The notes beneath the pieces are model-generated. The model did no database searches. It saw only the letters and a list, made by a program, of their open reading frames with translations, and was not told the origin of the DNA. A program made the position numbers and the translations under genes. From Bacteroidota bacterium (GTDB taxonomy: Bacteria; Bacteroidota; Bacteroidia; 2-12-FULL-35-15): DNA of 64,000 nucleotides. Below are positions 1,988 to 24,370 of the stretch, piece after piece. Location of the stretch: the NCBI GenBank assembly GCA_947479085.1, contig CANJYB010000022.1, positions 3,904-67,903 of the forward strand, read 5' to 3'. Position 1 is the stretch's first letter. Each line of letters opens with the position of its first letter.

Positions 1988-2665
1988 TTACCGTTTCCTG
2001 AGCGAGAATAGCTCCTTGTTGTATTCCAGCAAAGCGAGGTTTTGAGTGGCTGTTGGGTTTTGTTCGGCTTTGAGCACCTGCTCGTAGAGCTGTTTGGCCC
2101 TGTTATAATACAAAATATTATGAGCAGCATTATTAACATATAAGCTGAAATACACCTGGGTGGCCAGGGCCATTTTAATAGCGTTTTCGTATTTCGTAAA
2201 CTCGGTATGGTTGGCCGAAGCATCGGCAATGGGGTAGTATTTTTTGAACACTTCAAAATTCCGCAAGGCTACTGGGTAATTAATGGTGTCTATACTTGGC
2301 GAAAGGTCGTTATACAACAGAGAGATTAAATAACTGATGTTGGCTTTGCTTTTAGTTGCATTGGCTTTTGAGGTATCCAGTTCCATTGCTTTTTTAAAAC
2401 ATTCGAGGGCAGCCATGCGGGCAGGCGATTCGGGGTTTGTTTTTTCCTGTTCAAGGTAAATTTCCTTATTGGCGCAACCTTTATAGTACCATGCTTCGGC
2501 ATCTTTGGCACCTTTTCCCTTTTTGGTGCAGGAATCGAGGCAGGCAAGTGCGGCTTTGTATTCCTTTGCCTGCATAAGGGTAAAGGCACGTGTTGTACTT
2601 TCTTTTTGCGAAAAGCCATTGGCTGTTAAAAGCCATACGGTTGATATTATGAGGAGTTTTTTCAT
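1988..2665 (-). CDS. Secreted tetratricopeptide-repeat-like protein
   Basis: Start re-assigned to MKKLLIISTVWLLTANGFSQ (signal peptide); AEAWYYKG and ALECFKKAMELD are TPR-like helices. Confidence 0.7.
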   Translation of the reverse strand: MKKLLIISTVWLLTANGFSQKESTTRAFTLMQAKEYKAALACLDSCTKKGKGAKDAEAWYYKGCANKEIYLEQEKTNPESPARMAALECFKKAMELDTSKANATKSKANISYLISLLYNDLSPSIDTINYPVALRNFEVFKKYYPIADASANHTEFTKYENAIKMALATQVYFSLYVNNAAHNILYYNRAKQLYEQVLKAEQNPTATQNLALLEYNKELFSLRKR

Positions 2666-2730
2666 GTTCCTGTCTTTTAATTTGGTTATTGATTTTGAAC
2701 AGGGAAACAAATGTATGAAAAAAAGCAGAT

Positions 2731-2900
2731 AGTTGGTGGTTGGTGGTTGGTTATTTGGGGTTGGTGGTGTGTAGATTGTTGTTGGTGGTTAGTTGTTGGT
2801 GGTTTGAGGTTGGTGGTTTGAGGTTGGTGGTTTGTTGTTTGAGGTTTGAGGTTTGTGGTTTGTGGTTTGTGGTTTGTGGTTTGTGGTTGTTGGTGGCGCG
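2731..2900 (+). repeat. GT-rich heptamer tandem repeats (GGTTTGT/GGTTGGT/GGTTTGA)
   Basis: Directly visible 7-bp periodicity. Confidence 0.85.
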
Positions 2901-3021
2901 AGGTTTAGTGTGGAGGGATGGTAAAAAAAACACACCCCCTACCCCCTCTCGCTTGCGCATTGGCAAACGCACAGAGGGGAATAGCTTCCGTGAAAAGAGG
3001 TGATAAAGTTGGGCACTGGGG

Positions 3022-3113
3022 CACTTCGGCACTTCGGCAAGCTCAGTGACCGGAGCTAAGTGATAGTGTTACGAAACCTCCAAACCGGCAAAGGAGCCGG
3101 TTCGGAGGGAGAA
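3022..3113. repeat. Second copy of nested REP plus 39-nt hairpin
   Basis: CACTTCGGCACTTCGGCAAGCTCAGTGACC matches 1680-1710; 3075-3113 matches 1853-1891. Confidence 0.7.
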
Positions 3114-3175
3114 ACCACAAACCACAAACTACAAACAACTAACAACTAACAACTAACATCTACCCACCACAAACT
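3112..3175 (+). repeat. AC-rich heptamer repeats (AAACCAC/AACTAAC), approximately the reverse complement of 2731-2900
   Basis: Directly visible. Confidence 0.8.
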
Positions 3176-3208
3176 TGAAACTTTCCCTCTGAAACCTTTA
3201 ATTTTTAT

Positions 3209-3216
3209 TAGTTTTG
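3209..3216 (+). promoter_or_regulatory. Bacteroidota sigmaA -7 element (TAGTTTTG)
   Basis: Matches TAnnTTTG, 27 nt upstream of ATG at 3244. Confidence 0.6.
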
Positions 3217-3243
3217 CACCCGAATATTAATACGAGTTTATAT

Positions 3244-3927
3244 ATGAACCAAATCAAGACATTTTTAGTAGATAACCTTTCGGGCTTTTCGTTAAAGGCT
3301 ATTCCGGGTTTTATTTTCAGTTTTATTGTTTGTGCGGTGCTGTCTTTTATTTTGGGCAAGGTGTACACCAAATATGGCAATTCGCTGTCGAACCGTAAGG
3401 CTTTTGCGCGTAACTTTATAGTACTGGCCATTACCACCATGTTTATTATTTCGGTAGTAAAGTCGTCATTGGCCCTGTCGTTAGGGTTGGTGGGTGCATT
3501 GTCCATTGTTCGTTTCCGGTCGGCCATTAAGGAACCTGAGGAACTGACCTATTTGTTCCTTACCATTGCCATCGGGCTGGGTTGCGGGGCAGGGCTGGCA
3601 GTACTTACAGTCATTGCTTTTGTAGGTTTTGTGGCAGTTATCTGGTTTACCAATACGTATCAGAAATCATTAGAATCACAGAATTTATATCTTACCATTT
3701 CCAGCAACGAGCCGAAGGCAGTGAACCTGAAAGACATTGTGGAATTGCTGAAAAAACACTGCAGCGGCATAAAACTAAAACGTACGGACGAAACAACTGC
3801 TACTATTGAGGCTTCTTTTTTTGTGGAGTTTGATGATTTTGAAAAACTGGAAGCAGCCAAAGGCGCTATCAAAGGCATGCACCCTTCGGTTTCGGTTTCG
3901 TTTATGGATAATACGAGGGATTTTTAA
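3244..3927 (+). CDS. DUF4956-family membrane protein (MgtC-like TM region plus C-terminal ACT-like domain)
   Basis: SLALSLGLVGALSIVRFRSAIKEPEEL signature; several TM helices; ATG at 3244 preferred over upstream TTG. Confidence 0.85.
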   Translation: MNQIKTFLVDNLSGFSLKAIPGFIFSFIVCAVLSFILGKVYTKYGNSLSNRKAFARNFIVLAITTMFIISVVKSSLALSLGLVGALSIVRFRSAIKEPEELTYLFLTIAIGLGCGAGLAVLTVIAFVGFVAVIWFTNTYQKSLESQNLYLTISSNEPKAVNLKDIVELLKKHCSGIKLKRTDETTATIEASFFVEFDDFEKLEAAKGAIKGMHPSVSVSFMDNTRDF

Positions 3928-4002
3928 ATGACCGATGTCGGATGACCGAAGACCGATGAGTTCTAGGTTGACCAATCACCATTGACTAATGACTAATCAC
4001 CA

Positions 4003-4689
4003 ATGACAAATAAACCAGAACCTTTACGTTATGAACGAAAATTCCTGATTACAGGATATTCGCACCGCGATGTGGAGCAGATGGTGAAATTTCATCCTGC
4101 CTGCTTTTCGGAGTTGTTTCATGAGCGGGTGGTGAACAATATCTATTTTGATACTGCCGGGTTGACGCATTATTTTGATAATGTGGAAGGTTCGCCCGAA
4201 AGGTTAAAGGTGCGTATCCGCTGGTATGGTGATACTTTTGGACCGATACAAAAACCGGTGCTGGAGTATAAAATCAAGAAAGGATTGCTGGGCAGGAAAG
4301 AGTCGTTTGTATTGCAGCCTTTTAAATTAACCAATGATTTTACAGAAATGGAAATAGCCATGGCGGTGAGTGATGAGGCCATTCCTGTTTCGGTTAAAAA
4401 CGAAATGCGGTCGCTAAAGCCTACTTTGCTCAACTCTTACACCCGCAGGTATTATTTATCTGCTGATAAAAATTACCGGATTACGGTGGATCATCACCTT
4501 ACCTATTACCGGATAGGGGTGCATGGCAATACGTTTACCAATAAGTCAGTGGATTATAACACCACAGTGCTTGAATTAAAATACGATTCGTCACTGGAAG
4601 ATGAATCGAAATTAATAGCAAATCAGTTTCCTTTTCCGCTTACCAAAAGCTCTAAATACCTGCAGGGACTGGAAAGGGTATTTATATAA
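4003..4689 (+). CDS. VTC-domain (polyphosphate polymerase-like, CYTH/TTM tunnel fold) protein
   Basis: RYERKF (ExK), NIYFD, KVRIRWYG, LEYKIK, RITVD, VLELKY, SKY motifs. Confidence 0.85.
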   Translation: MTNKPEPLRYERKFLITGYSHRDVEQMVKFHPACFSELFHERVVNNIYFDTAGLTHYFDNVEGSPERLKVRIRWYGDTFGPIQKPVLEYKIKKGLLGRKESFVLQPFKLTNDFTEMEIAMAVSDEAIPVSVKNEMRSLKPTLLNSYTRRYYLSADKNYRITVDHHLTYYRIGVHGNTFTNKSVDYNTTVLELKYDSSLEDESKLIANQFPFPLTKSSKYLQGLERVFI

Positions 4690-6458
4690 TGCAACCCATA
4701 TTACAACCCAAACGAACAACTTCCTTATCCATCAAACTGGCTGCAGTGGTGGTGTTTGTTATAGCTGTTATTGCCTTTGTTTTCAGTTTAAAATATGCCG
4801 GAGAAAGCAAAAAAGAATATCCCGATTTAACGTTTGATACCCAGATTCCCTTTCCTGAATGTGAACAAAAAGGTGGTTTTTATGCCGAACCGTTTGACCT
4901 GAAAATGACCATCACCGGTGGTAATTACAAAATATATTATACCGTGGATGGTTCGGAACCATCTTTAAAATCTCCTGTTTACACCAAACCTTTAATTATT
5001 ACCAACCGGACAGGAGAAAACAATAATTTATCCAACATTCCCTCTTCTCCTCGCTGGAAACCTCCTGTGGGCGATGTGTTTAAGGGAACGGTGGTAAGAG
5101 CAATAGCTGTAACGGATGACAATAAAAAAAGCCTTGAGTTTACACGCACCTATTTTGTGGACCCTAAAGGCAGCAAGCGTTATAGTTTCCCGGTGGTGGC
5201 CATTACGGTTAATCCGGATGATCTGTTTGGTTACAAAACCGGGATTTATGTTTTAGGCAAAAACTATGATGATAAAAACGATTATGCAAAAAAAGACATT
5301 CCGCTTGATTTGCGATGGTGGAAATACCCGTCCAATTACCTTAAAAGAGGAAACAATGCCGAACGCCCTGCTTTTATAGAGTTTTATGAACCGGAAAATA
5401 AACTGGCTTTTGAAAGCAAAGTGGGAGTTAGAATAAACGGAAATGCCACCCGGGGATACGCACAGAAATCGCTCAGGATTAATTTCAGGAAGGAATACGA
5501 TGCGGAAGAGTTGAATTATAAACTGTTTGCAACCAAAGAGGTAACAAAATTCAAATCGTTTATTTTAAGAAACTCCGGAAACGACTGGGATAAAACCATG
5601 TTCAGAGATGCCTTTATGCAATCGCTGATGGCCGACTCAAAGATGGACATTCAGAGCAACCGGCCTGCAATTGTTTTTATAAACGGTGAATACTGGGGAA
5701 TACATAACCTATGTGAACGGTTTGATGAAAATTATATTTCCTTTAAGTACAACTTACCCAAGGACAGTATCATTATCCTTGAAATGAGCGGGAATGTATA
5801 TTATGGCAAAAAGAGAGATGCGACTGATTTTAAAGAGTTGCTTGCGTTTATTAAAAGTAATGATTTGAGTATTAATGCCAATTACCAAAAGGTGAAAAAC
5901 GAGATGGACATTGATAATTTTATAGATTTTGTAATTACCAATGTGTATTACTGCAACAGCGACTGGCCCAATAACAATGTAAAATACTGGAGATATAAAA
6001 CCACACCAACAGGTAACGATTCGGCAGGAATAAAAGATGGCCGCTGGAGGTGGATGCTCTATGATACCGATTATGGATTCGGGTTTACCGGAAGCGATGC
6101 CATACAGATGAACCTGCTTGAAAAGGCAAAAACAACAGGAAGTGTGGGCGTTCTGTTTTCAGGATTATTAAAGAACAAACAATTTACAGATAAATTTATT
6201 ACTGCATTTCAAACGCGGTTGAATACTTCCTTCCGTGAAACCTTTGTAATAAGCAAGATAAACGAGTTTGAAACCGCCTTTGCTCCTGAAATGGAAGAAA
6301 ACATAAACCGATGGAGGTTTATGGGTTCATTTTCGAAATGGAAAAGCAATGTGCAGGACTTAAGAGATTTTGCAGGCAAACGTCCTGAAATTCAGGCCAA
6401 ACAATTGAATGACTTTTTCAGGTTAACAGAGAAGAATAAAATTACTATTAAAAAATAA
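4689..6458 (+). CDS. CotH-family kinase with N-terminal membrane anchor and chitobiase/Fn3-like domain
   Basis: N-terminal TM; IYYTVDGSEPS; QKSLRINF, FRDAF, NGEYWGIHNLCER, DWPNNN, WRWMLYDTDYGFG; start overlaps previous stop (TAATG). Confidence 0.85.
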   Translation: MQPILQPKRTTSLSIKLAAVVVFVIAVIAFVFSLKYAGESKKEYPDLTFDTQIPFPECEQKGGFYAEPFDLKMTITGGNYKIYYTVDGSEPSLKSPVYTKPLIITNRTGENNNLSNIPSSPRWKPPVGDVFKGTVVRAIAVTDDNKKSLEFTRTYFVDPKGSKRYSFPVVAITVNPDDLFGYKTGIYVLGKNYDDKNDYAKKDIPLDLRWWKYPSNYLKRGNNAERPAFIEFYEPENKLAFESKVGVRINGNATRGYAQKSLRINFRKEYDAEELNYKLFATKEVTKFKSFILRNSGNDWDKTMFRDAFMQSLMADSKMDIQSNRPAIVFINGEYWGIHNLCERFDENYISFKYNLPKDSIIILEMSGNVYYGKKRDATDFKELLAFIKSNDLSINANYQKVKNEMDIDNFIDFVITNVYYCNSDWPNNNVKYWRYKTTPTGNDSAGIKDGRWRWMLYDTDYGFGFTGSDAIQMNLLEKAKTTGSVGVLFSGLLKNKQFTDKFITAFQTRLNTSFRETFVISKINEFETAFAPEMEENINRWRFMGSFSKWKSNVQDLRDFAGKRPEIQAKQLNDFFRLTEKNKITIKK

Positions 6459-6479
6459 TACATAATTTCTATTTAACTG

Positions 6480-6487
6480 TATCTTTG
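6480..6487 (+). promoter_or_regulatory. Bacteroidota -7 element (TATCTTTG)
   Basis: Perfect TAnnTTTG 21 nt upstream of GTG at 6509. Confidence 0.55.
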
Positions 6488-6508
6488 AAAACTTATAATT
6501 AACAGAGT

Positions 6509-7825
6509 GTGTTAGAATATTACAAAGAAAACGGCCAATTTTATTTAATCATACTTGTCTGGCTGCTGGCCGGAATGTTTGGAGGACCCGTAATTTTTCT
6601 TGTTCTTCCGGGTACCTTGGTTTTAATGCGACAAAAGGGAATGTGGGAAGAACTGTTCCTTGGTTTCTTTTTCATACTTATTATGTCCGACAGCGAGTTG
6701 TCTTATCTGGCCTTTGCCAAGAACATAAAAATTGTTTACTTGGTTATCCTAGCGGCCTTTTTTATCCTTGACATGGATGAATTCAGACCATTAAACGGTA
6801 TTTACAAGCAATACATTCCGTTTTTTATAGTTGCCATTATTTGCTTGTTTTTTTCACCTTCTCTTTTTGTTGGATTTCAAAAAACGTTTTCCTACATCCT
6901 CATGTTTATTCTTGTTCCCAACATTGTAACAAGGCTTTTTAGGGAAACAGGCCAGAAGTTTTTTAAAAACCTTATTTACTTTGGAACCACGATATGCCTT
7001 GCGGGTTTTATATTATACGCTATAAAAAAGGAATATGCGTTTAATGCCATAATCGGAAGATACAATGGGGTATTTGGAAATCCGAATGGTTTGGGGTTAT
7101 ATGCCTTCCTGTTATTTGCCCTGTTTTTTACCCTAAATGATATTTACGAAAACATGTTTACTAGGAACGAGAAAATACTGATTTATTTTGCCATTCTATT
7201 TTCCATTGTTTTCTCCAATTCGAGAAATGCATTTCTTAGTGTTGTTATTCTTGTTTTGTTTGCCGCCATTTTCAAAAAGTCTTCTTTTCTCGGACTCATT
7301 ATGTCCATTGTTTTGTTTGTTGTCAATTTGTTAGTTGCAGATTATATCCCTATCCTTATAAAACAGTTAGGGCTGGAATCGTTTTTCAGGCTGCATACAC
7401 TTCAGGAATTAAGTGGAAGAGCGGTAGCCTGGCAGTTTGCCTGGACCAAGATTCAGAATAACTATTTTATTTCAAGAGGATTTGGATACGATGAGTTTAC
7501 CATGCGGGCCAATTATCATATGTTGAGCAGAATGGGTACACAGGGAGGGGTGCATAGTTCCTACTTATCGCTATGGTTAAATTTTGGACTAGTAGGGGCC
7601 TTGTTGTATATGCGTTCCTTCTTTTTAGTATTTATTAAAGCGATTAAGATAAATCGAGTATCGTTTTCGATAATGTATGCTGTATTATTTTCAGCTGCCT
7701 TCGAAGGTTTGTTTATTGGTTCATTAAACCCACAAATGATTATTTTATTGATTACCATTACTATTATAAGCGACCCTGATTTTAAAACGGAAGAGGCCGA
7801 AATCGGGGAGCTACAGATTGCATGA
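6509..7825 (+). CDS. O-antigen ligase/polymerase (Wzy_C-like) family membrane protein
   Basis: Many TM helices; GVFGNPNGLG, SNSRNA, SGRAVAW, HSSYL...FGLVG motifs. Confidence 0.8.
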   Translation: MLEYYKENGQFYLIILVWLLAGMFGGPVIFLVLPGTLVLMRQKGMWEELFLGFFFILIMSDSELSYLAFAKNIKIVYLVILAAFFILDMDEFRPLNGIYKQYIPFFIVAIICLFFSPSLFVGFQKTFSYILMFILVPNIVTRLFRETGQKFFKNLIYFGTTICLAGFILYAIKKEYAFNAIIGRYNGVFGNPNGLGLYAFLLFALFFTLNDIYENMFTRNEKILIYFAILFSIVFSNSRNAFLSVVILVLFAAIFKKSSFLGLIMSIVLFVVNLLVADYIPILIKQLGLESFFRLHTLQELSGRAVAWQFAWTKIQNNYFISRGFGYDEFTMRANYHMLSRMGTQGGVHSSYLSLWLNFGLVGALLYMRSFFLVFIKAIKINRVSFSIMYAVLFSAAFEGLFIGSLNPQMIILLITITIISDPDFKTEEAEIGELQIA

Positions 7826-8949
7826 GAAGTACAGTAAAACCGTTATTAAAATACAAAGGAATAATTGAATTAGTGATTTCATTTATTCTTGCCTTCAGTA
7901 TCATAGTAGCTTATTTTCACGAAACTACCAATTTCGAAAATCTTGCATTGGGAGTTTATACACGTGCCTATTACGGTAAGATTAATAATGTACCGATGCA
8001 TTCCATGGGACTGAGAAAAAAGGAAGAGATACTAAAGGGAAACAAAGAAAGAGGAGCTAAAGATGTTGTTTTATTAATAGGCAATTCGCAAACCCATTCC
8101 ATTAATCAATACAAAGAAGGAGATGTTACTTTTCCTGAATTACTTGCCGATTCATTAGACAAAAAATCAATTGATATTATTGCCAGCAGCGTTCCAAATG
8201 CTACCATGGAGGATTTTTATTTACTCTATCAATCCTGGAAAAAGGATGTGAATATTAAAATGGTGGTATTCCCTATTTTTCTTGATGATACCAGGGAAGA
8301 AGGAATTCAGCAGGGGTTTTACAATGATATTAAATCTTTCCGCATAGCAGATTCGAACGCGATAGCGAAAAAAATAAACGGAGAGCTAGAGAAAATGGAA
8401 AAAGTAACCGGAACAAATGATTTAGCAGCCCTGAATCAAACCTTCCAGGAAATTACAGAATCGAAACTGGACAATTATTTGAATACCCACTTTAACCCCT
8501 GGTTTTACCGTCCAAACATCAGGGGAGAATTTTTCAGCAATCTTTATAAATTAAGAAATACAGTATTGGGCATTGATGCAAAAACAAAAAGAGGAATTAT
8601 TAAAGATATTTATGAAGAAAATATTAAGGCGTTGAAAATGCTGTTGGATGATTGCAGAAAAAGTAATATAAAAGTTTTGGTTTACATTCCACCATTGAGA
8701 AATGATTACGAAATCCCCTATTACCGTAATGAATACATCACTTTTAAAAAGCAAATGGGAGAAATAACCAAAGAATACAATGCCGGCTTTATTAATATCG
8801 AAAACTGCGTACCAAATAAATACTGGGGATTTAAAGGAACCCGCACTTTTAAAGGGCTGTTGGACATCGACTTTATGCACTTTCAATATCCCGGACATAT
8901 TATTATGGCGGATACGCTTCAGACCGAAATAGAAAAAATGATTAAATAA
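7822..8949 (+). CDS. Membrane-anchored SGNH-like O-acyltransferase partner (AlgJ/AlgX/DltD-like)
   Basis: N-terminal TM; IGNS nucleophile motif and C-terminal DxxH (DFMH); directly upstream of MBOAT gene. Confidence 0.65.
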   Translation: MRSTVKPLLKYKGIIELVISFILAFSIIVAYFHETTNFENLALGVYTRAYYGKINNVPMHSMGLRKKEEILKGNKERGAKDVVLLIGNSQTHSINQYKEGDVTFPELLADSLDKKSIDIIASSVPNATMEDFYLLYQSWKKDVNIKMVVFPIFLDDTREEGIQQGFYNDIKSFRIADSNAIAKKINGELEKMEKVTGTNDLAALNQTFQEITESKLDNYLNTHFNPWFYRPNIRGEFFSNLYKLRNTVLGIDAKTKRGIIKDIYEENIKALKMLLDDCRKSNIKVLVYIPPLRNDYEIPYYRNEYITFKKQMGEITKEYNAGFINIENCVPNKYWGFKGTRTFKGLLDIDFMHFQYPGHIIMADTLQTEIEKMIK

Positions 8950-8954
8950 ACTGT

Positions 8955-10421
8955 ATGATTTTTAATTCTGTTACATACCTTATTTTTCTTACGCTTGCTG
9001 TCATTTTGTATTGGCTATTGCCATTGCGTGCCGGACGCGCCATGTTATTTGGAGGAAGTTTATTATTCTATGGTTTCTGGAGGTTCGAGTTTTTGCCCTT
9101 GCTATTGATAGCAGCCATTGTGGATTATTGGTGTTCCATTGAAATTGAAAAAAGAGAAGAACCGAAATCACGTTTACGTTTTCTTATATTCAGTTTAACC
9201 ATTAATCTTGGAATTCTCTTTTACTTCAAATACTTAATCTTTTTCACCGATAACGTGGTATGGGCATTAAATGTTTTTGGTTGCAATATTGCAATACCTC
9301 ATTTGGATATATTACTTCCATTAGGAATCAGTTTTTATACTTTCGAAACAATAAGTTATACAGTCGATGTATATCGTAAACACATAAAGGCGGAACGTAA
9401 TTTTTTAACCTATGCTACGTTCCTTGTATACTTTCCGCATTTGATTGCCGGACCTGTTCTGCGGGCTTCAGAAATATTGCCCCAGTTAAAAACTAAAAAA
9501 CCGTTTGAAAATGAATTCATAATTACAGGTATGAAACGATTACTTCAGGGCCTTTTTTTGAAAGTGGTGCTTGCAGACAATATTGCTCCTTTGGTTAATG
9601 AAGGTTTCGCTTTAAATGCCGGGTCATTAAGTGCTATTGATGTTCTGACATTGGCATTTATGTTCGGTATGCAGATTTATTTTGATTTCAGCGCCTATTC
9701 TCATATTGCTATAGGAAGTGCAAAAATGATGGGCATTAATTTTCCGGAAAATTTCAATTTCCCTTACGCAGCAGCTTCTTTCAGGGAGTTCTGGAAAAGA
9801 TGGCATATCTCCTTATCCAGTTGGATAAGAGATTATTTGTATTTGCCTATTATGAAAACGAAAGTGGTCAGCGATGGTTCTACCGGTATAGGAAACGTTT
9901 TGAATGATTCACAACCCAAACGAAATCGGAATGTTGCATTGTTTCTTACCTGGTCTATTATGGGATTGTGGCACGGAGCCAACTGGACATTTATCTTCTG
10001 GGGAGTATACCATGCAAGTTTTGTTTTTATTGAACGGATGATTAATAAGTTCAGAAAGAAAACTGCAACTAAAAATTGGTTCAAATTGTTTATGAGTTGG
10101 TCCATAGTAGTTCCTATTGCAATGCTAAGTTGGATTCCATTCAGAGCAACCAATATGACTATTGTCTGGGAAATGTATAGTAAACTCTTTTCGATGAAAG
10201 GATATACTTTTCTTGGAATGAAAGAAAACATCTACATCGTTTGTGCGCTTTTATTTGGTTTAACCACATTGATGTATGTTTATAAAACATTTATTAGTCA
10301 GAAGGTTCAAAAATCGGGCATCCTTTCTTCCATTATTAATATTAGTGCTTATACTGTAATGATAATATTAGTTTTCTGCTTTTTACGTCCTATCAGTCAG
10401 TTCATCTATTTCCAATTCTAA
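8955..10421 (+). CDS. MBOAT family O-acyltransferase (AlgI/DltB-like)
   Basis: LPLGISFYTF, QIYFDFSAYS, ENFNFPY, FWKRWHISLSSWIRDYLY, GLWHGA. Confidence 0.92.
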   Translation: MIFNSVTYLIFLTLAVILYWLLPLRAGRAMLFGGSLLFYGFWRFEFLPLLLIAAIVDYWCSIEIEKREEPKSRLRFLIFSLTINLGILFYFKYLIFFTDNVVWALNVFGCNIAIPHLDILLPLGISFYTFETISYTVDVYRKHIKAERNFLTYATFLVYFPHLIAGPVLRASEILPQLKTKKPFENEFIITGMKRLLQGLFLKVVLADNIAPLVNEGFALNAGSLSAIDVLTLAFMFGMQIYFDFSAYSHIAIGSAKMMGINFPENFNFPYAAASFREFWKRWHISLSSWIRDYLYLPIMKTKVVSDGSTGIGNVLNDSQPKRNRNVALFLTWSIMGLWHGANWTFIFWGVYHASFVFIERMINKFRKKTATKNWFKLFMSWSIVVPIAMLSWIPFRATNMTIVWEMYSKLFSMKGYTFLGMKENIYIVCALLFGLTTLMYVYKTFISQKVQKSGILSSIINISAYTVMIILVFCFLRPISQFIYFQF

Positions 10422-10425
10422 ATCA

Positions 10426-13020
10426 ATGTTAATAACACCTCCTAACAATATTGCGAAGGCTGATAAAGGAAAAAAGAAAAGAAACAAAAAGAAATACCTG
10501 TTTATTTTTTCTCTTCTTCTGATAACAGGTTTTATTGTTGGAAATCATTTCGCTTCTAAAACTTTACAAACTAAGGGCTATAGTAGTTTATGGGATTTTG
10601 TAAAAACTGTTTCATCTAACTATTGGAACGGACTAGATGCCAAGCCTGAAAAAGTATCTATTGAAATCAAGGAAAAGGATTATAAATTTCTGGAAAGAAA
10701 CAGGGAAAGAGCATTAGAAAGAAATGTTATAATTAATAACATTGACGGTGATTATGTTCCCGCTACATTTGAATATCAAGGCAAAAAATTAAAAATAAAG
10801 TTGAGGCTTAAAGGTCACATGACCGACCATTTGCAGGAAAACAAATGGTCGTTCCGGATAAAAGTGAAAGACAAAGGTTCGTTTATGGGAATGAAACGCT
10901 TCTCCATTCAACATCCCGGCACTCGAGGTTATTTGTATGAATGGATATACCATGAATTAATGAAAAGAGAAGGCATTATGGCTTTACGGTATAAATTTAT
11001 TAATGTAACAGTAAACGGACGCGATTGGGGAATATATGCTGTTGAAGAAAATTTCGATAAAGAATTAATTGAAAATAATAACCGGATATTGGCGCCTATT
11101 ATTCGTTTCAATCCTGATATGTATTGGATAAACAGGTATAATGTTATGAAAGCGCAGGCCTCAGCAGACGAATTTGCAACTTACTATTCAGCTAATCCTG
11201 AAGCATACAATGAAGATGCAGTTCTTGCAGATTCAATTCAACGAATTTACTTTTTAAAAGCAATGGCATTGGTAGAAGGATTCAGAAGCAAAGCACTCTC
11301 TGCTGACAAGGTGTTTGACATTGAAAAACTAGCAAAATTTCATTCCATTATTGATTTGGTTGGCGGTGAACATAGCATTGACTGGAGTGATATCAAATAT
11401 TACTACAATCCTGTTTCAGCAAAGTTAGAGCCTGTTGCCTATGAAAGCTTTACTTTTCTTGCATCAAGAGACATAACAGGAAGCTATAAGTATGTTCAAT
11501 TAGATAGTGAAAAGGATAATTATGAAGATTGGCATACTGCAATTTACAGCAACCCGGAATTTTTTAAAACCTATGTAAAAAATCTGGAAAGAATTTCTAA
11601 GTCAAGTTACCTCGACAACTTTTTCACATCTGTAAATTCAACTTTGAGTACTAATCTTAAAATTCTGAATAAAGAATTTCCTTATAAGAAATTTGACAAA
11701 AAGGGGTATTATAAAAATCAACAAATGATTCAAAGAATATTGTCAACTCCAAAAGGAATACAAGCCTATTTTAATAAGGTTTCAGACAATATGGTTCAAT
11801 TGCAAATAGGCGAAATCGAAAGCCTTCCGATAGAAATCAAATCAATTTCTTTGTCAGGAATAAAAGCGCTACCCTCCTCTCCTATTATTTTACCCGCTAA
11901 GCAAAAAAATGAGTATTTAAATTATAAAAATTACGAATTCAAACTGCCGGACAATTTCAAATGGGATAATTCACTAATCAAAACCATGAAAATTAATTAT
12001 TCCATTTTAGGAGCATCAGCAAATTTAGAAACAAACATTTATTCCTATCCACACACGGAAGATGAATTTATATCAGAAGATTTAAAAAGAAAAGAATCTA
12101 CTATTCATAACTTTTCTTTTTTAACGATAGACGAAAAAAATAAAAGCATTTTTATAAACAAAGGAAAACAAGTAATTAATTCTGATCTGATTATCCCCAG
12201 GGGATATAAGGTATTTGCCGATGCGGGAGTTCTGGTTGACCTAAAAAACAAGGCAAAAATAATCTCTTATTCAGGTCTAATGTTCTCAGGAAATGAGGAG
12301 GATCAAATCATAATCGAATCAAGTGATTCAACATCTGAGGGTATTGAAATTATTAATGCTTCCAGTTCAAAATTAAATTATGTAACATTTAAAAACTTCC
12401 CGAAAGTAAATGATGAGCAATGGCATAGATCCGGAGCAATAACCTTTTACGAATCTGCAGTTGAATTCAATAATTGCAGTTTCTATAATTGTAAAGCAGA
12501 AGATGAGGTAAATTTAATTCGTTCACATTTTTCGTTTAATGAATGTCTTTTCCAGAAAATGCATGATGATGCTATTGATGCAGATTATTCAGAAGGGAAA
12601 ATAAGCAATTCGGTATTTGAAAATTGTTTGGAAAATGCTTTGGACATTTCAACTTCCAAAGTACATGTAAATTCAATTTACATAAATGGATCTAATAATA
12701 AAGCTATTAATGTTAAGGCTGGCGGCCAATTAACAGGTACTGAAGTCAGAATAAAAAATTGCAACATTGCAATTTCTGCTGAAGATTTATCAAATATTAA
12801 TTTCCAAGCCTTAACGATTAGTGATTCTAAGGTTGGCGTTATTGCTTACAAAAATAAATCCGGAGGGGGACATCCAACTATTAATATTAAGAGAATTAGT
12901 CTATTGAACGTGAAGAAAAATTATTTAAAAGAACAAAAATCAACTATTACAATAAATGATAAAGAAATTGAAGAAGAAGTAAATGACGTAGAAAACATTA
13001 TTAAAAGTGATGGGAAGTAA
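10426..13020 (+). CDS. Divergent CotH-like kinase fused to C-terminal right-handed beta-helix
   Basis: N-terminal TM; RLKG...KWSFRIK, NGRDWGIYAVEE, HSIDWSDIKYYYNP...LEPVAYE; C-terminal DAIDAD/NALDIS/KAINVK parallel beta-helix repeats. Confidence 0.7.
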   Translation: MLITPPNNIAKADKGKKKRNKKKYLFIFSLLLITGFIVGNHFASKTLQTKGYSSLWDFVKTVSSNYWNGLDAKPEKVSIEIKEKDYKFLERNRERALERNVIINNIDGDYVPATFEYQGKKLKIKLRLKGHMTDHLQENKWSFRIKVKDKGSFMGMKRFSIQHPGTRGYLYEWIYHELMKREGIMALRYKFINVTVNGRDWGIYAVEENFDKELIENNNRILAPIIRFNPDMYWINRYNVMKAQASADEFATYYSANPEAYNEDAVLADSIQRIYFLKAMALVEGFRSKALSADKVFDIEKLAKFHSIIDLVGGEHSIDWSDIKYYYNPVSAKLEPVAYESFTFLASRDITGSYKYVQLDSEKDNYEDWHTAIYSNPEFFKTYVKNLERISKSSYLDNFFTSVNSTLSTNLKILNKEFPYKKFDKKGYYKNQQMIQRILSTPKGIQAYFNKVSDNMVQLQIGEIESLPIEIKSISLSGIKALPSSPIILPAKQKNEYLNYKNYEFKLPDNFKWDNSLIKTMKINYSILGASANLETNIYSYPHTEDEFISEDLKRKESTIHNFSFLTIDEKNKSIFINKGKQVINSDLIIPRGYKVFADAGVLVDLKNKAKIISYSGLMFSGNEEDQIIIESSDSTSEGIEIINASSSKLNYVTFKNFPKVNDEQWHRSGAITFYESAVEFNNCSFYNCKAEDEVNLIRSHFSFNECLFQKMHDDAIDADYSEGKISNSVFENCLENALDISTSKVHVNSIYINGSNNKAINVKAGGQLTGTEVRIKNCNIAISAEDLSNINFQALTISDSKVGVIAYKNKSGGGHPTINIKRISLLNVKKNYLKEQKSTITINDKEIEEEVNDVENIIKSDGK

Positions 13021-14071
13021 AACAAATAAATCAATTTTAATATTAAGCGGACTAACGTTGCTGTTGAATGTTTTAACAGCGCAGATTATTTCCCCCTTTA
13101 ATAATCTTCCTGTTTACGATTCTTCCAAAAACTACTCTTTTATTGTTAGTGGTCATTTTCATGGAGCGTCAACCAACTCATCCACCTTTCCAGCTTCAAG
13201 CCTCCTGGCGAATATAGATTCCTTAAATTCATTAAAGCCGGTCTTTTTAATGAGTCTGGGGGATATGTTTTTAGATGTTAATGATACCTATATAAACCAT
13301 TACAAATATTGTTTATTTGACAAATTAAAAATGCCTTTATTTAATTCGGTTGGCAATCATGATTTAGCAGGTAATGTTTACGAAAAAAAATTTGGAAAAA
13401 CATATTTTTCTTTTGTACATAATTCGGAACTATTCATTGTTCTTAATACCGAAATGAATGATGGCAGTATAAAAGATGAGCAATTGAAATTATTTACATT
13501 TTCAATTGACACTGCTTTGAAAAGCGAAATAAAAAATGTTTTCATTTTTACTCATCGTCCGATATGGGCAGAAAGAATAGAAAAATACAGTAAACTTTTC
13601 AGTGATAATACACGAACAGCTTTAGGAAATAATAACTTTATTGAGGACATTGAACCTCTTTTGAAAAAGGTTTCAAAAAATAAAAATGTATATTGGCTAT
13701 CAGGTTCTATGGGTGGAATGGCCCCAGCCTCTTTTTTCTTTGATAAAGACGAGAAAACAAATGTAACATTTATGCAAACTTCTATTCGTGATTTGCCAAG
13801 AGATGCTATACTCCAGGTAAACATTAATAACGGAATTGCTACCTTAAAAGGCATTTCAATAACAGGACAAAAATTAACACCCGTTGAAGATTACAATTTA
13901 GTCTACTGGAATAAAAATATGGCACCAGAACAGGCCTTTAATTTCAGATTGGTTCCATATTTAGCTAAACAAATGTTACTTCATCATTTCTTTTGGTTCG
14001 GGTTTTTCTTCTTTCTTTTAATAACTCTTACAATTACATTCATTAAAAAACGATGGAAAAGAAAAAAATAG
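13010..14071 (+). CDS. Calcineurin-like metallophosphoesterase, exported, with C-terminal TM anchor
   Basis: GHFHG, LGD, GNHD, THRP motifs; signal-like N-terminus; hydrophobic C-terminus followed by KKRWKRKK. Confidence 0.75.
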   Translation: MGSKTNKSILILSGLTLLLNVLTAQIISPFNNLPVYDSSKNYSFIVSGHFHGASTNSSTFPASSLLANIDSLNSLKPVFLMSLGDMFLDVNDTYINHYKYCLFDKLKMPLFNSVGNHDLAGNVYEKKFGKTYFSFVHNSELFIVLNTEMNDGSIKDEQLKLFTFSIDTALKSEIKNVFIFTHRPIWAERIEKYSKLFSDNTRTALGNNNFIEDIEPLLKKVSKNKNVYWLSGSMGGMAPASFFFDKDEKTNVTFMQTSIRDLPRDAILQVNINNGIATLKGISITGQKLTPVEDYNLVYWNKNMAPEQAFNFRLVPYLAKQMLLHHFFWFGFFFFLLITLTITFIKKRWKRKK

Positions 14072-15138
14072 TTTTTCTTTATTCTGAACTTGCAACTTAC
14101 TTTCTGGCCTGCATAAAACAGCTCCTATTGCATCCTGAAGTTGAGGTTCACATTGTACGTTGGGAAGTTAATAAGGAAGCTCCTTTTCAATTTTCATTCT
14201 CAGAAAACCTGAAGACATACGAACGAAAAGATTATTCTTCTTCTCAATTACTTGGATTGGTAGGTATTATTGACCCTGACATTATCTATTCCAGCGGATG
14301 GATGGATAAAGACTATTTAAAAATCTGCAAAAAATATAAAAACAAAATTCCTGTAATTGTTGGTTTTGATAACCAATGGAAAGGTTCCTTAAAACAGAAA
14401 ATAGCTACAATTGTCAGTCCATTTAAAATATTAAATCACTTCTCTTATTGTTGGGTGCCCGGAGAATTACAATATAAATATGCTTTAAAGCTAGGTTTTA
14501 AAACATCTAAAATATTAACCGGATTTTATTGTTGTGATTTTGATTTTTTTTATAACCAATATCTTGCAAATAAAGATCTGAAACAAAAACAATTTCCTCA
14601 CCGTTTTATCTATGTAGGACGATATGTAGAGCATAAGGGAATAATGGATTTATGGACTGCTTTTATCGAATTGCAAAAAGAGAATCCAAACGATTGGGAA
14701 CTTTGGTGTATTGGTACAGGTGATGTTCAGCCGGTTATTCATGATAAAATTAAACATTTTGGGTTTGTACAACCCAATGATTTACATTTGTATATAGAAA
14801 AAACGGGAGTTTTTGTATTACCAAGCCATTTTGAACCATGGGGTGTGGTTGTTCATGAGTTTACATCTGCAGGTTTTCCAATAATTTGCTCTGATGAAGT
14901 AGGTGCAAGAACTACATTTGTAGAAAATGATTTGAATGGTTATGTTTACGAATCAGGAGATATTAAATTACTAAAAGATGCCATGATAAAAACAATGAGT
15001 CATTCCGATTCGGAACTTATATTAATGTCTGAAAAGAGTATCGAGAAAGCGAGGCAACTTACTCCTGAAAAATGGGCTGCAACACTTTTAAAAGTTTGTG
15101 GTTCGGCAATTACTAATGATATTACAAGTCAAAAATAA
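14053..15138 (+). CDS. Glycosyltransferase family 4 (GT-B)
   Basis: YVGRYVEHKG and LPSHFEPWGVVVHE (ExxxxxxxE). Confidence 0.9.
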   Translation: MEKKKIVFLYSELATYFLACIKQLLLHPEVEVHIVRWEVNKEAPFQFSFSENLKTYERKDYSSSQLLGLVGIIDPDIIYSSGWMDKDYLKICKKYKNKIPVIVGFDNQWKGSLKQKIATIVSPFKILNHFSYCWVPGELQYKYALKLGFKTSKILTGFYCCDFDFFYNQYLANKDLKQKQFPHRFIYVGRYVEHKGIMDLWTAFIELQKENPNDWELWCIGTGDVQPVIHDKIKHFGFVQPNDLHLYIEKTGVFVLPSHFEPWGVVVHEFTSAGFPIICSDEVGARTTFVENDLNGYVYESGDIKLLKDAMIKTMSHSDSELILMSEKSIEKARQLTPEKWAATLLKVCGSAITNDITSQK

Positions 15139-17033
15139 TGTGTGGAATTAACGGAATACTTGGTTTATCTGATAAAAAAAATGCAGAACAAAAGGTTATT
15201 GCAATGAATACTGCAATGAAACATCGTGGACCTGATGATCAGGGCTTTTTTATTGACAAAAAAATAGCATTGGGACACAGGCGACTTTCCATTATTGATT
15301 TATCAGCAGCAGGACATCAGCCAATGCATTCTTTTGATGGTCGTTATCTAATTGTTTACAATGGTGAATTATACAATTTCAGGGAATTAAAATTTGAATT
15401 ACAACGCGTTGTTTCTGGTTCAAAAGAACAAGCCTATCTATTTCAAACAAATACAGATACAGAAGTAATTCTTGCTTCCTATATCCGTTGGGGAGCAGAA
15501 TGCCTGAATCGATTTAATGGAATGTTTGCCTTTGCAATATGGGACAGTCATACTAAAGAGCTTTTTATTGCCAGGGACAGACTTGGAATAAAACCCCTAT
15601 ATTATTATTTTACTGAGGGTATTTTAGCATTTTCTTCTGAAATCAGATCGTTACTTGCAAGTGACTTAATTAAAAGAAAATTAGATGAAACCAGTTTGAT
15701 TGATTACTTGCGATATCAAACCGTACATGCCCCGAACACCATGGTTAAGGGAGTAAAAATGTTAATGCCCGGCCATTATATGAAAGGATCTTTCAATAAG
15801 GTTACAATACATAGCTATTGGAATATAAGCGAAACAATTAGCGATGAATCAAAAGGAAAGTCATATAAAGAAGTATGTAGTGATGTAAATACTCTATTAA
15901 CAAAATCAGTAGAAAGAAGATTAATAGCCGATGTCCCTTTCGGTGCATTTCTTTCAGGAGGAATTGACTCTAGTGCAATAGTTGGATTAATGAGCAAAGT
16001 ATCTACAGAAAAGATAAAAACCTTTTCTGTTACGTTTGATGAAAGTGAATTTTCGGAAGCAAAATATGCTCAGTTAATTGCAAAAAAATTCAACACAGAC
16101 CATCATGAAATAAAACTCAAACCTGCTGATTTCATTGAACAACTTCCTAATGCTTTAAAAGCTATGGACCACCCAAGCGGTGATGGACCAAATACATATA
16201 TTGTTTCGAAAGCTACCAAAGAAGCAGGTATAACTATGGCCCTTTCCGGGTTGGGTGGAGACGAACTATTTGCGGGGTATGATGTATTTAAACGCTCTTT
16301 AGACTTAAATAAAAAAAATTGGCTTAATCTTTTTCCTTCATTCGCCCGAGGAATTGGAGGAGATATTTTAACTACACTAAAACCCGGAGTTGCGTCTGAA
16401 AAAATATCGGAATTATTAAAACAAAACAAAGTTAATTTTAACTCTTTCTATCCTTTATCCAGGCAAGTCTTGATGGATAATCAAATATTAGAAATAGTAA
16501 ACCAAAAAGAGCTACCCATCAACAAAGTATTTGAAATTGTTAAGGAAACAAACACTTCGAATCTGCAATCAGAAATTTCAAAAGTTAGTATCGCTGAAAT
16601 TTCAACCTATATGCAAAATGTCCTATTAGGAGATGCTGATCAGATGAGTATGGCTCATGCGTTGGAAGTTCGGGTTCCTTTCATCGATTATACACTTGTT
16701 GAATATGTATTGGGTGTGCCTGACAAATTTAAAATTCCAACTTCTCCAAAAAAATTATTGGTGGATGCTCTTGGTGATTTGCTCCCTTCGGAAATTGTAA
16801 ATCGACCTAAAATGGGATTTACTTTCCCTTGGAAACAATGGATGAAGCAGGAATTAAAAAACTTTTGCGAAGAGAAAATTATATCCTTATCAAAACGTAA
16901 ACCTTTTAATGAAAAAGGCATGATTAAACTCTGGAATGATTTTCTTTCAGACAAGCCAAACATTACCTGGTCAAGAATATGGTATTTAGTTGTTCTTGAA
17001 AATTGGTTGCAGGAAAATGATATTACTGATTAA
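15138..17033 (+). CDS. asnB: Asparagine synthase (glutamine-hydrolysing)-like amidotransferase
   Basis: MCGI N-terminus, HRGPD, LGHRRLSIID, FLSGGIDSS, LEVRVPF, RPKMGF. Confidence 0.93.
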   Translation: MCGINGILGLSDKKNAEQKVIAMNTAMKHRGPDDQGFFIDKKIALGHRRLSIIDLSAAGHQPMHSFDGRYLIVYNGELYNFRELKFELQRVVSGSKEQAYLFQTNTDTEVILASYIRWGAECLNRFNGMFAFAIWDSHTKELFIARDRLGIKPLYYYFTEGILAFSSEIRSLLASDLIKRKLDETSLIDYLRYQTVHAPNTMVKGVKMLMPGHYMKGSFNKVTIHSYWNISETISDESKGKSYKEVCSDVNTLLTKSVERRLIADVPFGAFLSGGIDSSAIVGLMSKVSTEKIKTFSVTFDESEFSEAKYAQLIAKKFNTDHHEIKLKPADFIEQLPNALKAMDHPSGDGPNTYIVSKATKEAGITMALSGLGGDELFAGYDVFKRSLDLNKKNWLNLFPSFARGIGGDILTTLKPGVASEKISELLKQNKVNFNSFYPLSRQVLMDNQILEIVNQKELPINKVFEIVKETNTSNLQSEISKVSIAEISTYMQNVLLGDADQMSMAHALEVRVPFIDYTLVEYVLGVPDKFKIPTSPKKLLVDALGDLLPSEIVNRPKMGFTFPWKQWMKQELKNFCEEKIISLSKRKPFNEKGMIKLWNDFLSDKPNITWSRIWYLVVLENWLQENDITD

Positions 17034-20318: not shown

Positions 20319-21068
20319 TTAGTTTAAAAACTGTCCTGCTTTTGATAATGGCTTTAATATAAAGGTAAACATTCCGGGCTTTAAGCCATTTATAAGCCAT
20401 GCTTTTTTATCCTCCCTATTTGCTCTTAAACGATTTAGTAAAGAAACATTGCTCTTGCCTCCTACTCTCATTTTAACAAGCACCTCAGGAATATAAGCAA
20501 TTGAGCATTTTTGTTTCTCAATTAGTCGTAACATCATTTCATAATCAGCAGCGGACTTTAAAGAAGTGTTAAATGTTCCATATCTATCATAACAATAGCT
20601 CCTTACAAAAAAAGATGGGTGAGGAGGCATCCAGCCTTTAATAAAACATCCCTCCTTATATTCACCAGATTTCCAATTTCGAATTAGTTTTGAAGTATCT
20701 GCTCTGTTAACATACTGCAAATCACCATAAACCGTATCCACCTCTTTTGCTTCAAAAGCTTTTACAATAGATGAAATTACTTTACTATTAGCATAAAAAT
20801 CATCCGCATGAAGAATAGCAATAACTTCACCGGAAGCAAGGGCAATACCTTTATTTATTGCAAAATAAATACCCTCATCTTTTTCGGAGATTATTTTTTT
20901 AATCCTGTCTTTGTATTTCTCTATTATTGCTAAAGTTTCATCTGTTGATTTACCATCAACAATAATGTACTCTATTTCCTTATAATCCTGTTCAATAACG
21001 GATTGGATTGTTTTTTCAATAGTATCAGCGCTATTGTAACATACCGTTATGATAGAAATCTTCAACAT
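20319..21068 (-). CDS. Glycosyltransferase family 2 (WcaE-like)
   Basis: ISIITVCYN, IVDGKSTD, ILHADD, WMPPHP. Confidence 0.92.
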   Translation of the reverse strand: MLKISIITVCYNSADTIEKTIQSVIEQDYKEIEYIIVDGKSTDETLAIIEKYKDRIKKIISEKDEGIYFAINKGIALASGEVIAILHADDFYANSKVISSIVKAFEAKEVDTVYGDLQYVNRADTSKLIRNWKSGEYKEGCFIKGWMPPHPSFFVRSYCYDRYGTFNTSLKSAADYEMMLRLIEKQKCSIAYIPEVLVKMRVGGKSNVSLLNRLRANREDKKAWLINGLKPGMFTFILKPLSKAGQFLN

Positions 21069-21071
21069 AGA

Positions 21072-22796: not shown

Positions 22797-22897
22797 ATTT
22801 ATTTATTCTAAGTATTAATTCCCGTTTCTGAAATTTTGAACGGGATTGCAAATGTAATTAAGATTAGGAAAGTAACAAGTATATTTAATTATCTTCC

Positions 22898-24037: not shown

Positions 24038-24041
24038 ATTG

Positions 24042-24049
24042 CAAAAGTA
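24042..24049 (-). promoter_or_regulatory. -7 element (TACTTTTG), probably leaderless transcript
   Basis: TAnnTTTG ends 4 nt before GTG start. Confidence 0.5.
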
Positions 24050-24183
24050 ATTATTTAAAATTTTACAGCCCAAATAAGATGAATATCAACTGTATTGTAT
24101 GGTTATTTCAAGTTAAATTTTATTTGCCCAAAAGACATGTGGAGCACCTGAAATTTTATAAACGTATGCAAAGTATTAATCAT

Positions 24184-24370
24184 AATGGGCTGTAAATCGA
24201 TTTTTAAGCGAAAGTGAGTATTCAAAATGGGCTGTAAATCGATTTTTAATCGAAAGTGAGTATTCAAAACGGGCTGTAAATCGATTTTTAATCGAAAGTG
24301 AGTAATCAAAATGGGCTGTAAATCGATTTTTAATCCAAAGTGATTAATGAAGAGAGCTGAAAATCGATTT
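24184..24370. repeat. 42-bp tandem repeat, about 4.4 copies, with palindromic AAATCGATTT core
   Basis: Cores at 24194, 24236, 24278, 24320, 24361. Confidence 0.92.

Follow-up and report, generated by a model that had tools for sequence, protein, structure and literature searches.

A linked DUF4956, VTC and CotH gene set at the head of a Bacteroidota glycan operon: a candidate polyphosphate-fuelled periplasmic kinase system

Results

Gene organization of the locus

The window analysed here is a 64,000-nucleotide stretch of a Bacteroidota genome (assembly GCA_947479085.1, contig CANJYB010000022.1, positions 3,904 to 67,903), and its subject is a set of three adjoining genes at 3244-6458 that encode a DUF4956 membrane protein, a VTC protein of the triphosphate tunnel metalloenzyme (TTM) type and a CotH-family kinase. 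The genome, in which the window is part of contig C22, has a size of 4.28 Mb, is 99.4% complete and carries type IX secretion system (T9SS) sorting domains. By open reading frame listing and Pfam, the three genes head a glycan operon of ten genes, all on the plus strand, at 3244-17033. A sequence-only reading of this DNA had assigned the same three families, and each assignment was supported by Pfam above its cut-off: the DUF4956 protein (227 amino acids, 3244-3927, plus strand) by PF16316 with 70.6 bits against 30.6, the soluble, Vtc4-like VTC tunnel protein (228 amino acids, 4003-4689, plus strand) by PF09359 with 96 bits against 23, and the kinase, hereafter called CotH1 (589 amino acids with Fn3_assoc and CHB_HEX_C regions, 4689-6458, plus strand), by PF08757 with 179.8 bits against 23.8. 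The likely DUF4956 start is the ATG at 3244, in a frame open from 3214. Intergenic gaps across the ten-gene run are 76 bases or fewer, or the genes overlap, and downstream of CotH1 they do not exceed 50 bases. The VTC stop codon TAA (4687-4689) and the CotH1 ATG (4689-4691) have one base in common; with this shared base and the same-strand run, the tight VTC-CotH linkage described in the sequence-only reading is confirmed as written.

The seven plus-strand genes that follow encode a polytopic Wzy_C protein resembling O-antigen ligases and polymerases (6509-7825, 53.7 bits), a single-pass protein with a weak DUF1574 match (7822-8949, 17.7 bits, below the cut-off), an MBOAT membrane O-acyltransferase (8955-10421), a second CotH-like protein, CotH2 (864 amino acids, 10426-13020, 37.9 bits), a putative, divergent calcineurin-like metallophosphoesterase assigned from its fold model and without a Pfam match (354 amino acids, 13007-14071), a GT4 glycosyltransferase (14053-15138) and, last in the run, an AsnB-type glutamine amidotransferase (15138-17033). 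The MBOAT, GT4 and AsnB assignments are above the Pfam cut-offs. The DUF1574-like protein and the MBOAT protein are probably an O-acylation pair. The operon ends at 17033, where it abuts a convergent M16 peptidase gene. A terminator scan returned 15 sites against 12.4 expected; all plus-strand sites in the operon were intragenic and none lay between its genes. The three genes thus run on into the ligase-like, O-acylation, GT4 and AsnB genes, as had been read from the sequence, and the designation as a surface-glycan locus holds both for the window and for related loci from metagenome-assembled genomes (MAGs), which are surrounded by glycan genes. That the three genes head the locus is true of the window; in four related MAG loci they occupy an internal position within a longer glycan cluster on one strand. 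Promoter counts were at or below shuffle expectation in a scan whose models do not include Bacteroidota promoters, Rfam gave no match in 2500-4100, and no NCBIfam model matched any of seven proteins of this genome (six from the window and one from contig C17).

The VTC protein resembles Vtc4

The PF09359 match of the VTC protein covers model positions 2-234 of 235. No transmembrane segment was found by hydropathy scan, in agreement with the soluble protein proposed earlier, and the VTC domain is the only domain present. A profile of 22 bacterial VTC proteins was compared with the Protein Data Bank (PDB), and the catalytic domain of Vtc4 was the best match over its full length (E = 8e-22). Vtc2 and Vtc3 scored lower, and no other PDB match appeared up to E = 1. 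A PDB search with the single window sequence gave weak Vtc4 matches only. In the alignment, with Vtc4 numbered after chain 8i6v_E, residues R9 and K13 of the window protein correspond to R196 and K200, R71 and R73 to R264 and R266, E191 to E426, and S217 and K218 to S457 and K458. Without exception, the 22 VTC sequences share K13, R71, R73, E191 and K218. Vtc4 K200 and K458 are presumably catalytic tunnel residues. Judged by these comparisons of sequence, the VTC protein is Vtc4-like specifically, its nearest polymerase subunit being Vtc4 and not the non-catalytic Vtc2 or Vtc3. The triple substitution R264A/R266A/E426N inactivates Vtc4, and the exit of the Vtc4 tunnel faces the positively charged entrance of a channel (PMC9911596).

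The genome also encodes PPK1, and a search of it for PPK2 gave no match; since PPK1 is already present, the VTC protein would be an additional system. Fused VTC forms were absent from 573 longer candidates, which is weak evidence. The sole fused VTC form seen is a 778-residue protein at L061:5800-8136 (G224:C10), in which the VTC domain occupies residues 515-746 and the N-terminal region of about 514 residues is without a Pfam match.

The DUF4956 protein is MgtC-like

The DUF4956 protein was modelled with AlphaFold2 (pLDDT 83.4, pTM 0.63). The model begins with a short helix and continues with a hydrophobic part of five helices, which bears out the multi-pass topology proposed from the sequence, and a C-terminal domain of beta-alpha-beta-beta-alpha-beta order that is ACT/PII-like. 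All 34 aligned relatives match PF16316, and the sole invariant arginine among them belongs to the motif GAxSIxRFR, which is placed where helix 3 is predicted to reach the cytoplasm. By the positive-inside rule, the basic loops of the model (residues 31-53 and the RFR region) and its C-terminal domain are most readily assigned to the cytoplasm. In a Foldseek search only the C-terminal domain was matched, by PII-like SbtB, by CutA and by the C-terminal domain of MgtC (2lqj, E = 3.8e-3). Sub-threshold matches to Pfam MgtC (PF02308) were found in 18 of 34 DUF4956 members (E up to 1, best 4.2e-6), and the window protein scored 13.3 bits, below the cut-off of 31.4. DUF202, the Vtc1-type domain, gave no match on DUF4956 members in the 25 of 35 families listed, nor anywhere in the genome. 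A complex prediction for DUF4956 with VTC scored 0.00 against a mark of 0.32, was run without controls and carries no weight in either direction.

The sequence-only reading had described VTC and DUF4956 as a split VTC complex. One half of that description stands, namely a Vtc4-like enzyme tied to a membrane protein; the other half does not, as the DUF4956 protein is MgtC-like, is without a DUF202 signal and has no homology to the Vtc1 channel, and the term is therefore an analogy only. We propose DUF4956 as a candidate inner-membrane translocator partner of VTC.

The CotH proteins and the predicted metallophosphoesterase

A single N-terminal transmembrane segment (residues 13-31) was found in CotH1 by hydropathy scan, and its catalytic residues D425 and D459 align with D224 and D247 of Bacillus cereus CotH, which are spaced 23 residues apart, as are D228 and D251 of B. 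subtilis CotH. Both catalytic aspartates are kept in 10 of 10 CotH proteins that adjoin VTC or DUF4956. The membrane-anchored kinase with intact motifs of the earlier reading was thus recovered, and its kinase domain is predicted from the single anchor to face the periplasm, as had been assumed. Many CotH proteins of this genome carry T9SS export tails, and a spore-coat role of CotH is implausible in a T9SS-bearing Bacteroidota genome. In predicted topology CotH1, CotH2 and the metallophosphoesterase all have single anchors with basic cytoplasmic tails; the N-terminus of CotH2 is strongly basic, with 9 K/R in the 15 residues before its transmembrane segment.

The CotH-like domain of CotH2 matches B. 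cereus CotH (E = 3e-5). Its catalytic-loop aspartate is not conserved, His316 being invariant instead, and the metal site retains an acidic residue (E or D). The C-terminal region of its orthologue in locus L027 has a sub-threshold right-handed beta-helix score. One possibility is that CotH2 is a pseudokinase, another that it is a partner that binds glycan.

The 354-residue protein has an N-terminal signal sequence and a C-terminal transmembrane anchor whose tail contains 7 K/R. Its GD and GNHD motifs are invariant, but the first motif reads SGHFH and the last is indistinct. No Pfam match was obtained for the window protein at E 0.01, PF00149 was found on 8 of the 120 homologues listed, and a profile search against PDB sequences found nothing. 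The fold model (pLDDT 81.5) matches purple acid phosphatases in Foldseek (E = 5e-9) and also Rv0805, GpdQ and 5'-nucleotidases (E = 9e-5 or better). It is predicted from the model to be a divergent metallophosphoesterase with its catalytic domain facing the periplasm.

These genes form part of a conserved core. The VTC proteins closest to that of the window, at 61-68% identity, come from five Bacteroidota MAG loci, and the four of these that are complete keep the order DUF4956-VTC-CotH1-Wzy_C-CotH2-metallophosphoesterase-GT4 at 44-82% identity. The core lies in these four loci within longer same-strand glycan clusters that encode UDP-GlcNAc 2-epimerase, GT4 and GT2 enzymes, pyruvyl transferase, acyltransferase and deacetylase. 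Locus L027 has DUF4956-CotH2-VTC-Wzy_C among sugar-modifying genes. The DUF1574-like gene is outside the core, and MBOAT is found at its position only in the window; in L057 an MBOAT gene lies upstream instead.

Linkage of the three families across genomes

The distribution of the three families was compared across 301 genomes of the phylum, which are related to one another. Of these, 47 carry VTC, 90 carry DUF4956 and 119 carry CotH. Every VTC genome has DUF4956 (47/47) and CotH (47/47), and 87 of the 90 DUF4956 genomes have CotH; CotH was present in 72 of 254 VTC-negative and 32 of 211 DUF4956-negative genomes. The pattern is nested, VTC genomes falling within DUF4956 genomes and these largely within CotH genomes. 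Fisher values for the cross-tabulation were 1e-22 and 4e-44, and these overstate the association because the survey genomes are kin. The family labelled f29 is one where the same 37 of 49 genomes carry DUF4956 and CotH.

For 49 of the 52 VTC matches in the 47 genomes, DUF4956 lies less than 1 kb away on the same strand. In two of the remaining matches DUF4956 lies 2.7-2.9 kb upstream, separated by intervening genes, and the last match is a fragment whose contig carries no DUF4956. VTC precedes DUF4956 in all of the 49 close pairs but one (48 of 52 matches), and the window alone has the reverse order. The adjacency of VTC and DUF4956 is not due to chance, and together with the complete co-occurrence it upholds the functional linkage of the three genes that had been suggested from the window.

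CotH lies close to the pair less often. Among 22 sampled pair loci, 7 had a CotH-like gene within 10 kb, versus 2 of 20 loci with a lone DUF4956 gene; by a rough estimate, a genome of some 4 Mb with a few CotH genes would give about 2% by chance per 20-kb window. Twenty of the pair loci were chosen for spread over families, CotH having already been seen near one of them (G097), and five further loci chosen for a seen CotH gene or an odd frame are outside the count of 7 in 22. Positions were available for 150 of the 391 CotH matches in the survey. Among 14 control genomes, VTC and DUF4956 occur in the same three (Bacteroides thetaiotaomicron, Corynebacterium glutamicum and Methanosarcina acetivorans), and CotH occurs in these three and in B. 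subtilis.

The genome of the window has 11 CotH matches in total and a second VTC-DUF4956 pair on contig C17. This pair (G000:C17:34815-36829, L014:4816-6830, minus strand) is followed by a DUF2490 gene. Two CotH genes with T9SS tails lie at C17:20222-26287, about 12 kb from it.

Export-type neighbours of DUF4956

Neighbouring proteins were clustered over 42 loci. A DUF2490 gene follows the VTC-DUF4956 pair in eight loci, in L064 and in the C17 copy of this genome (by Pfam in C17 and L064). In eight loci VTC is preceded by an adaptor-like protein (354 amino acids), the profile of which matches membrane-fusion proteins: a resistance-nodulation-division membrane-fusion protein (4e-7), ZneB (7e-7), and AcrA and EmrA (1e-4 or better). 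Lone DUF4956 genes are followed by a HlyD-like protein of 330 amino acids in 15 of 20 sampled loci (L035-L042, L046, L049-L054), and in 13 of these 15 the next gene encodes a 413-residue protein without a Pfam family. A protein atlas puts this last protein near TolC-like clusters, a lead only, with OEP on 11% of the best named cluster, and its profile found nothing relevant in the PDB.

The most complete arrangement was seen in L062, where one same-strand run holds CotH, DUF4956, a HlyD adaptor (PF16576, 46 bits), an OEP/TolC protein (PF02321, 63 bits) and VTC, with no other inner-membrane transporter between CotH and VTC. The order in L063 is VTC, DUF4956, a Porin_O_P-like gene and CotH; the porin-like protein (334 amino acids, L063:10424-11428, G149:C15) scores just above the cut-off for Porin_O_P, the phosphate-selective porin family, with 22 bits against 20.9. 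L064 has CotH, VTC, DUF4956 and DUF2490, and L065 has CotH, adaptor, VTC and DUF4956. These adaptor, TolC, DUF2490 and porin neighbours fit DUF4956 as an inner-membrane export component and are hard to reconcile with a purely cytoplasmic regulatory role for it.

Repeats and other features of the window

Directly upstream of the first gene of the operon lies a G/T-rich array of 22 GTTTGTG-like heptamers at 2732-2888, extending to about 2913, and facing it at 3112-3182 is an inverted C/A-rich heptamer tract. The arms are 46-63 nucleotides long, 76-83% complementary and about 220-290 nucleotides apart. The region 2732-3182 could be an invertible, length- or phase-variable switch or a regulatory element, and whether it is part of the system is uncertain. 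Short arrays with periods of 7, 14 or 21 nucleotides occur at 3928-4011, in the 76-nucleotide gap between DUF4956 and VTC, and at 42258-42375 and 63726-63843; heptamer periodicity may be a habit of the intergenic DNA of this genome.

Further tandem repeats were noted elsewhere in the window. An array of 8.6 copies of a 276-nucleotide unit (69% matches) at 33496-35856 is probably a repeated domain of a large surface protein. A 42-nucleotide unit is present in 4.9 copies at 24170-24447, just upstream of a LytTR response-regulator and histidine-kinase pair, a 21-nucleotide unit in 10.2 copies at 31327-31540, and a 22-nucleotide unit in 7.6 copies at 42847-43013. The minus-strand GT2, carbamoyltransferase and GT4 genes at 20319-24073, which follow the operon at a distance of a few kb, may be a second small glycan-modifying cluster.

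Discussion

Proposed mechanism

The arrangement described above suggests the following scheme. The soluble Vtc4-like tunnel enzyme would make polyphosphate from nucleoside triphosphate at the cytoplasmic face of the inner membrane, and the MgtC-like DUF4956 protein would carry across that membrane either the chain or a phosphoanhydride donor made from it. The anchored, periplasmic CotH1 would use the donor, so that phosphate might be added to or trimmed from a Wzy-dependent surface glycan, or envelope proteins, and it would act together with the divergent CotH2-beta-helix protein and the anchored metallophosphoesterase. Polyphosphate synthesis, translocation by DUF4956 and use by CotH are the steps that we infer; beneath them lie the observed gene linkage, the family assignments, the conserved catalytic residues and the predicted topology. 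Taken as a whole, this reading, in which polyphosphate is made, exported by DUF4956 and used by periplasmic CotH on the glycan, is put forward tentatively, its probability in our estimation being somewhat below even. In a broader form, bacteria and some archaea would have an envelope-spanning polyphosphate synthase-exporter that brings phosphoanhydride energy into ATP-free compartments, where Fam20-like CotH kinases would take polyphosphate as phosphoryl donor and act on surface glycans or proteins. Its parts would be a Vtc4-like enzyme docked on an MgtC-like DUF4956 channel, with a HlyD adaptor, a TolC-type protein, DUF2490 or a phosphate porin wherever there is an outer membrane to cross. 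This generalization is rather unlikely.

Several observations weigh against polyphosphate export to CotH. Triphosphatase, cyclase and polymerase TTM enzymes have tunnel residues in common, and because of this, residue conservation is no proof of polymerase activity. By sequence comparison DUF4956 is not homologous to the Vtc1-type channel, and Foldseek gave no transporter or Vtc1-like match for its membrane part. MgtC is known as a regulator of other proteins and not as a channel, according to a preprint (10.1101/2024.04.20.589940). CotH is found without VTC in 72 of 119 CotH genomes and without DUF4956 in 32 of 119, DUF4956 is found without VTC in 43 of 90 genomes, 40 of which have CotH, and 15 of the 22 sampled pair loci are without CotH within 10 kb. 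The kinship of the survey genomes tempers the association further. Because lone DUF4956 genes adjoin HlyD-like genes, the cargo of DUF4956 need not be polyphosphate made by VTC. The window operon itself contains no adaptor or outer-membrane gene by Pfam. B. subtilis CotH uses ATP, and a change of donor in CotH1 away from ATP is a proposal only.

Other explanations share much of this evidence. Polyphosphate itself might be the exported product, put out by VTC and DUF4956 together with adaptor and outer-membrane parts where these exist, and form a polyanionic coat on the surface or the glycan that the phosphoesterase trims. CotH would then have a role of its own, for instance in attaching or capping, and would not use it as a general donor. 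Linkage and export context would suit such a coat as well as they suit donor export to CotH, and the Wzy_C gene directly after the module in the window, in L027 and in the four MAG loci, the periplasmic metallophosphoesterase in the conserved core and the Porin_O_P-like gene in L063 are all consistent with it. The presence of CotH in 47 of 47 VTC genomes and of both catalytic aspartates in 10 of 10 neighbouring CotH proteins would, however, be left without explanation, and no polyphosphate-binding or -attaching enzyme was identified; we consider the coat unlikely. Export might also be absent altogether. VTC and DUF4956 would then be a cytoplasmic regulator pair in which a polyphosphate, triphosphate or nucleotide signal, made or hydrolysed by the TTM enzyme, is sensed by the ACT-like domain of DUF4956 and glycan synthesis or membrane energetics are adjusted. 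The sub-threshold MgtC matches in 18 of 34 members argue for this, as does the resemblance of the C-terminal domain to ligand-binding PII-like and ACT domains and to MgtC 2lqj, and a preprint on Streptococcus intermedius suggests that polyphosphate may remain cytoplasmic (10.1101/2024.04.20.589940). Yet a polyphosphate, triphosphate or nucleotide signal gives no evident need for neighbours such as HlyD adaptors, TolC/OEP, DUF2490 or phosphate-porin-like proteins, L062 has no other inner-membrane transporter between CotH and VTC, and the complete co-occurrence with an extracytoplasmic CotH would go unexplained. A regulator pair of this kind is in our view unlikely.

The finding that 43 of 90 DUF4956 genomes are without VTC and that 40 of these 43 have CotH, along with the HlyD-like gene beside lone DUF4956 in 15 of 20 sampled loci, points instead to a DUF4956 protein that moves some other cargo, such as a nucleotide, phosphate or a cation. 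VTC would be an accessory hydrolase or energiser, and CotH would need the cargo, for example exported ATP, which is the donor of Bacillus CotH. This accounts poorly for a VTC protein whose nearest polymerase subunit is Vtc4 and whose catalytic residues are kept, and for the VTC-to-DUF4956 order fixed in 48 of 52 matches, and we rate it as quite improbable. Finally, related genomes share gene order and those of the survey are not independent, so that the three genes might be neighbours by chance or shared descent with no common function. The recurrence of the pair in several arrangements and contexts across many families speaks strongly against this, as does its occurrence in three distant control genomes and, according to the literature, in Firmicutes and Actinobacteria, and such a coincidence is very hard to credit.

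The system bears on the supply of phosphoryl donors to enzymes outside the bacterial cytoplasm. Kinases of the CotH family are common among bacteria that form no spores, being present in 119 of the 301 genomes here, and we know of no donor or substrate for them. If polyphosphate export to CotH is correct, the VTC counterpart would be a second prokaryotic route of polyphosphate synthesis beside PPK1 and PPK2, and a means to energise periplasmic or surface chemistry. The nested distribution, with the adaptors and porins near DUF4956, provides a concrete and testable gene set, and B. thetaiotaomicron, which has all three families, is a possible host. The same genes adjoin biofilm-polysaccharide loci of streptococci and clostridia, so the answer bears on matrix biology too.

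Comparison with known systems

The three families have appeared together in print before, without an assigned function, which agrees with the earlier statement that the set is seen in other bacteria and has no described role. Genes for cotH, a 'poly-phosphate polymerase', DUF4956 and DUF4832 adjoin pel operons of streptococci, clostridia and bifidobacteria, and a regulatory kinase role was suggested for the pel-linked cotH set (Whitfield et al. 2020, PMC7112168 / 10.1101/768473). In S. intermedius a secreted CotH-like protein, a cytoplasmic Vtc4-like protein and a four-pass MgtC-like protein with an ACT domain were described, and the combination was reported as not found outside pel operons (10.1101/2024.04.20.589940). 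NELoc-2 of Clostridium perfringens contains two VTC-domain genes, each followed by a membrane protein of about 220 amino acids annotated 'tubulin/FtsZ'; a resolvase gene separates the two pairs, CotH comes next and a chitin-synthase-like gene lies three genes on (PMC2879425). The pel-linked sets and NELoc-2 are like the window in having the same three families side by side near exopolysaccharide genes. The window differs from the pel-linked sets in coming from a diderm Bacteroidota genome, in having a Wzy_C-type cluster with no pel genes by Pfam, and in a core that adds the CotH2-beta-helix protein and the predicted periplasmic metallophosphoesterase. No paper proposing polyphosphate export, or polyphosphate as a CotH donor, was present in the literature found.

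Individual components have familiar counterparts. CotH1 shares with the Bacillus spore-coat Ser/Thr kinase CotH (PDB 5jd9) the CotH domain with both catalytic aspartates aligned, but it is membrane-anchored, predicted to be periplasmic, carries added Fn3_assoc and CHB_HEX_C regions and comes from a non-spore-former. DUF4956 resembles the MgtC/SapB family in its small polytopic N-terminal part and its C-terminal ferredoxin/ACT-like domain; it differs in scoring below the MgtC cut-off, in its own invariant GAxSIxRFR motif and in gene context. The likeness to tripartite export systems lies in L062, where DUF4956 is followed by a HlyD adaptor and OEP/TolC, and in the adaptor-like gene before VTC in eight further loci, whereas the window operon is without an adaptor and a TolC/OEP gene. 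To our knowledge, DUF4956 is in none of the transporter classes that pair with adaptors.

A further counterpart is the eukaryotic VTC complex (Vtc4/Vtc3/Vtc1 in yeast), in which passage through the membrane is coupled to the synthesis of polyphosphate. The window protein has a homologous catalytic TTM domain that retains the aligned catalytic residues, and it is tied genetically to a small polytopic membrane protein, much as the TTM domain of Vtc4 is tied to a transmembrane channel (PMC9911596). In contrast to the eukaryotic proteins, the window protein of 228 amino acids has no SPX domain and no fused transmembrane domain, and its partner is DUF4956 and not DUF202. The proposed target is the periplasm or cell surface and not the vacuole, and the pair is joined in relatives to HlyD, TolC or porin-type parts. 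To the published record the present data add the occurrence in Bacteroidota outside pel loci, with the reservation that the supplementary tables of the pel papers may list further non-pel loci; a nested distribution of the families among genomes; neighbours of DUF4956 that are of adaptor, TolC, DUF2490 and porin type; and the extended core with CotH2 and the predicted periplasmic metallophosphoesterase. The component families are known and the gene set has appeared in print. The system may be regarded as the bacterial counterpart, by analogy, of the VTC machinery, its membrane partner being non-homologous.

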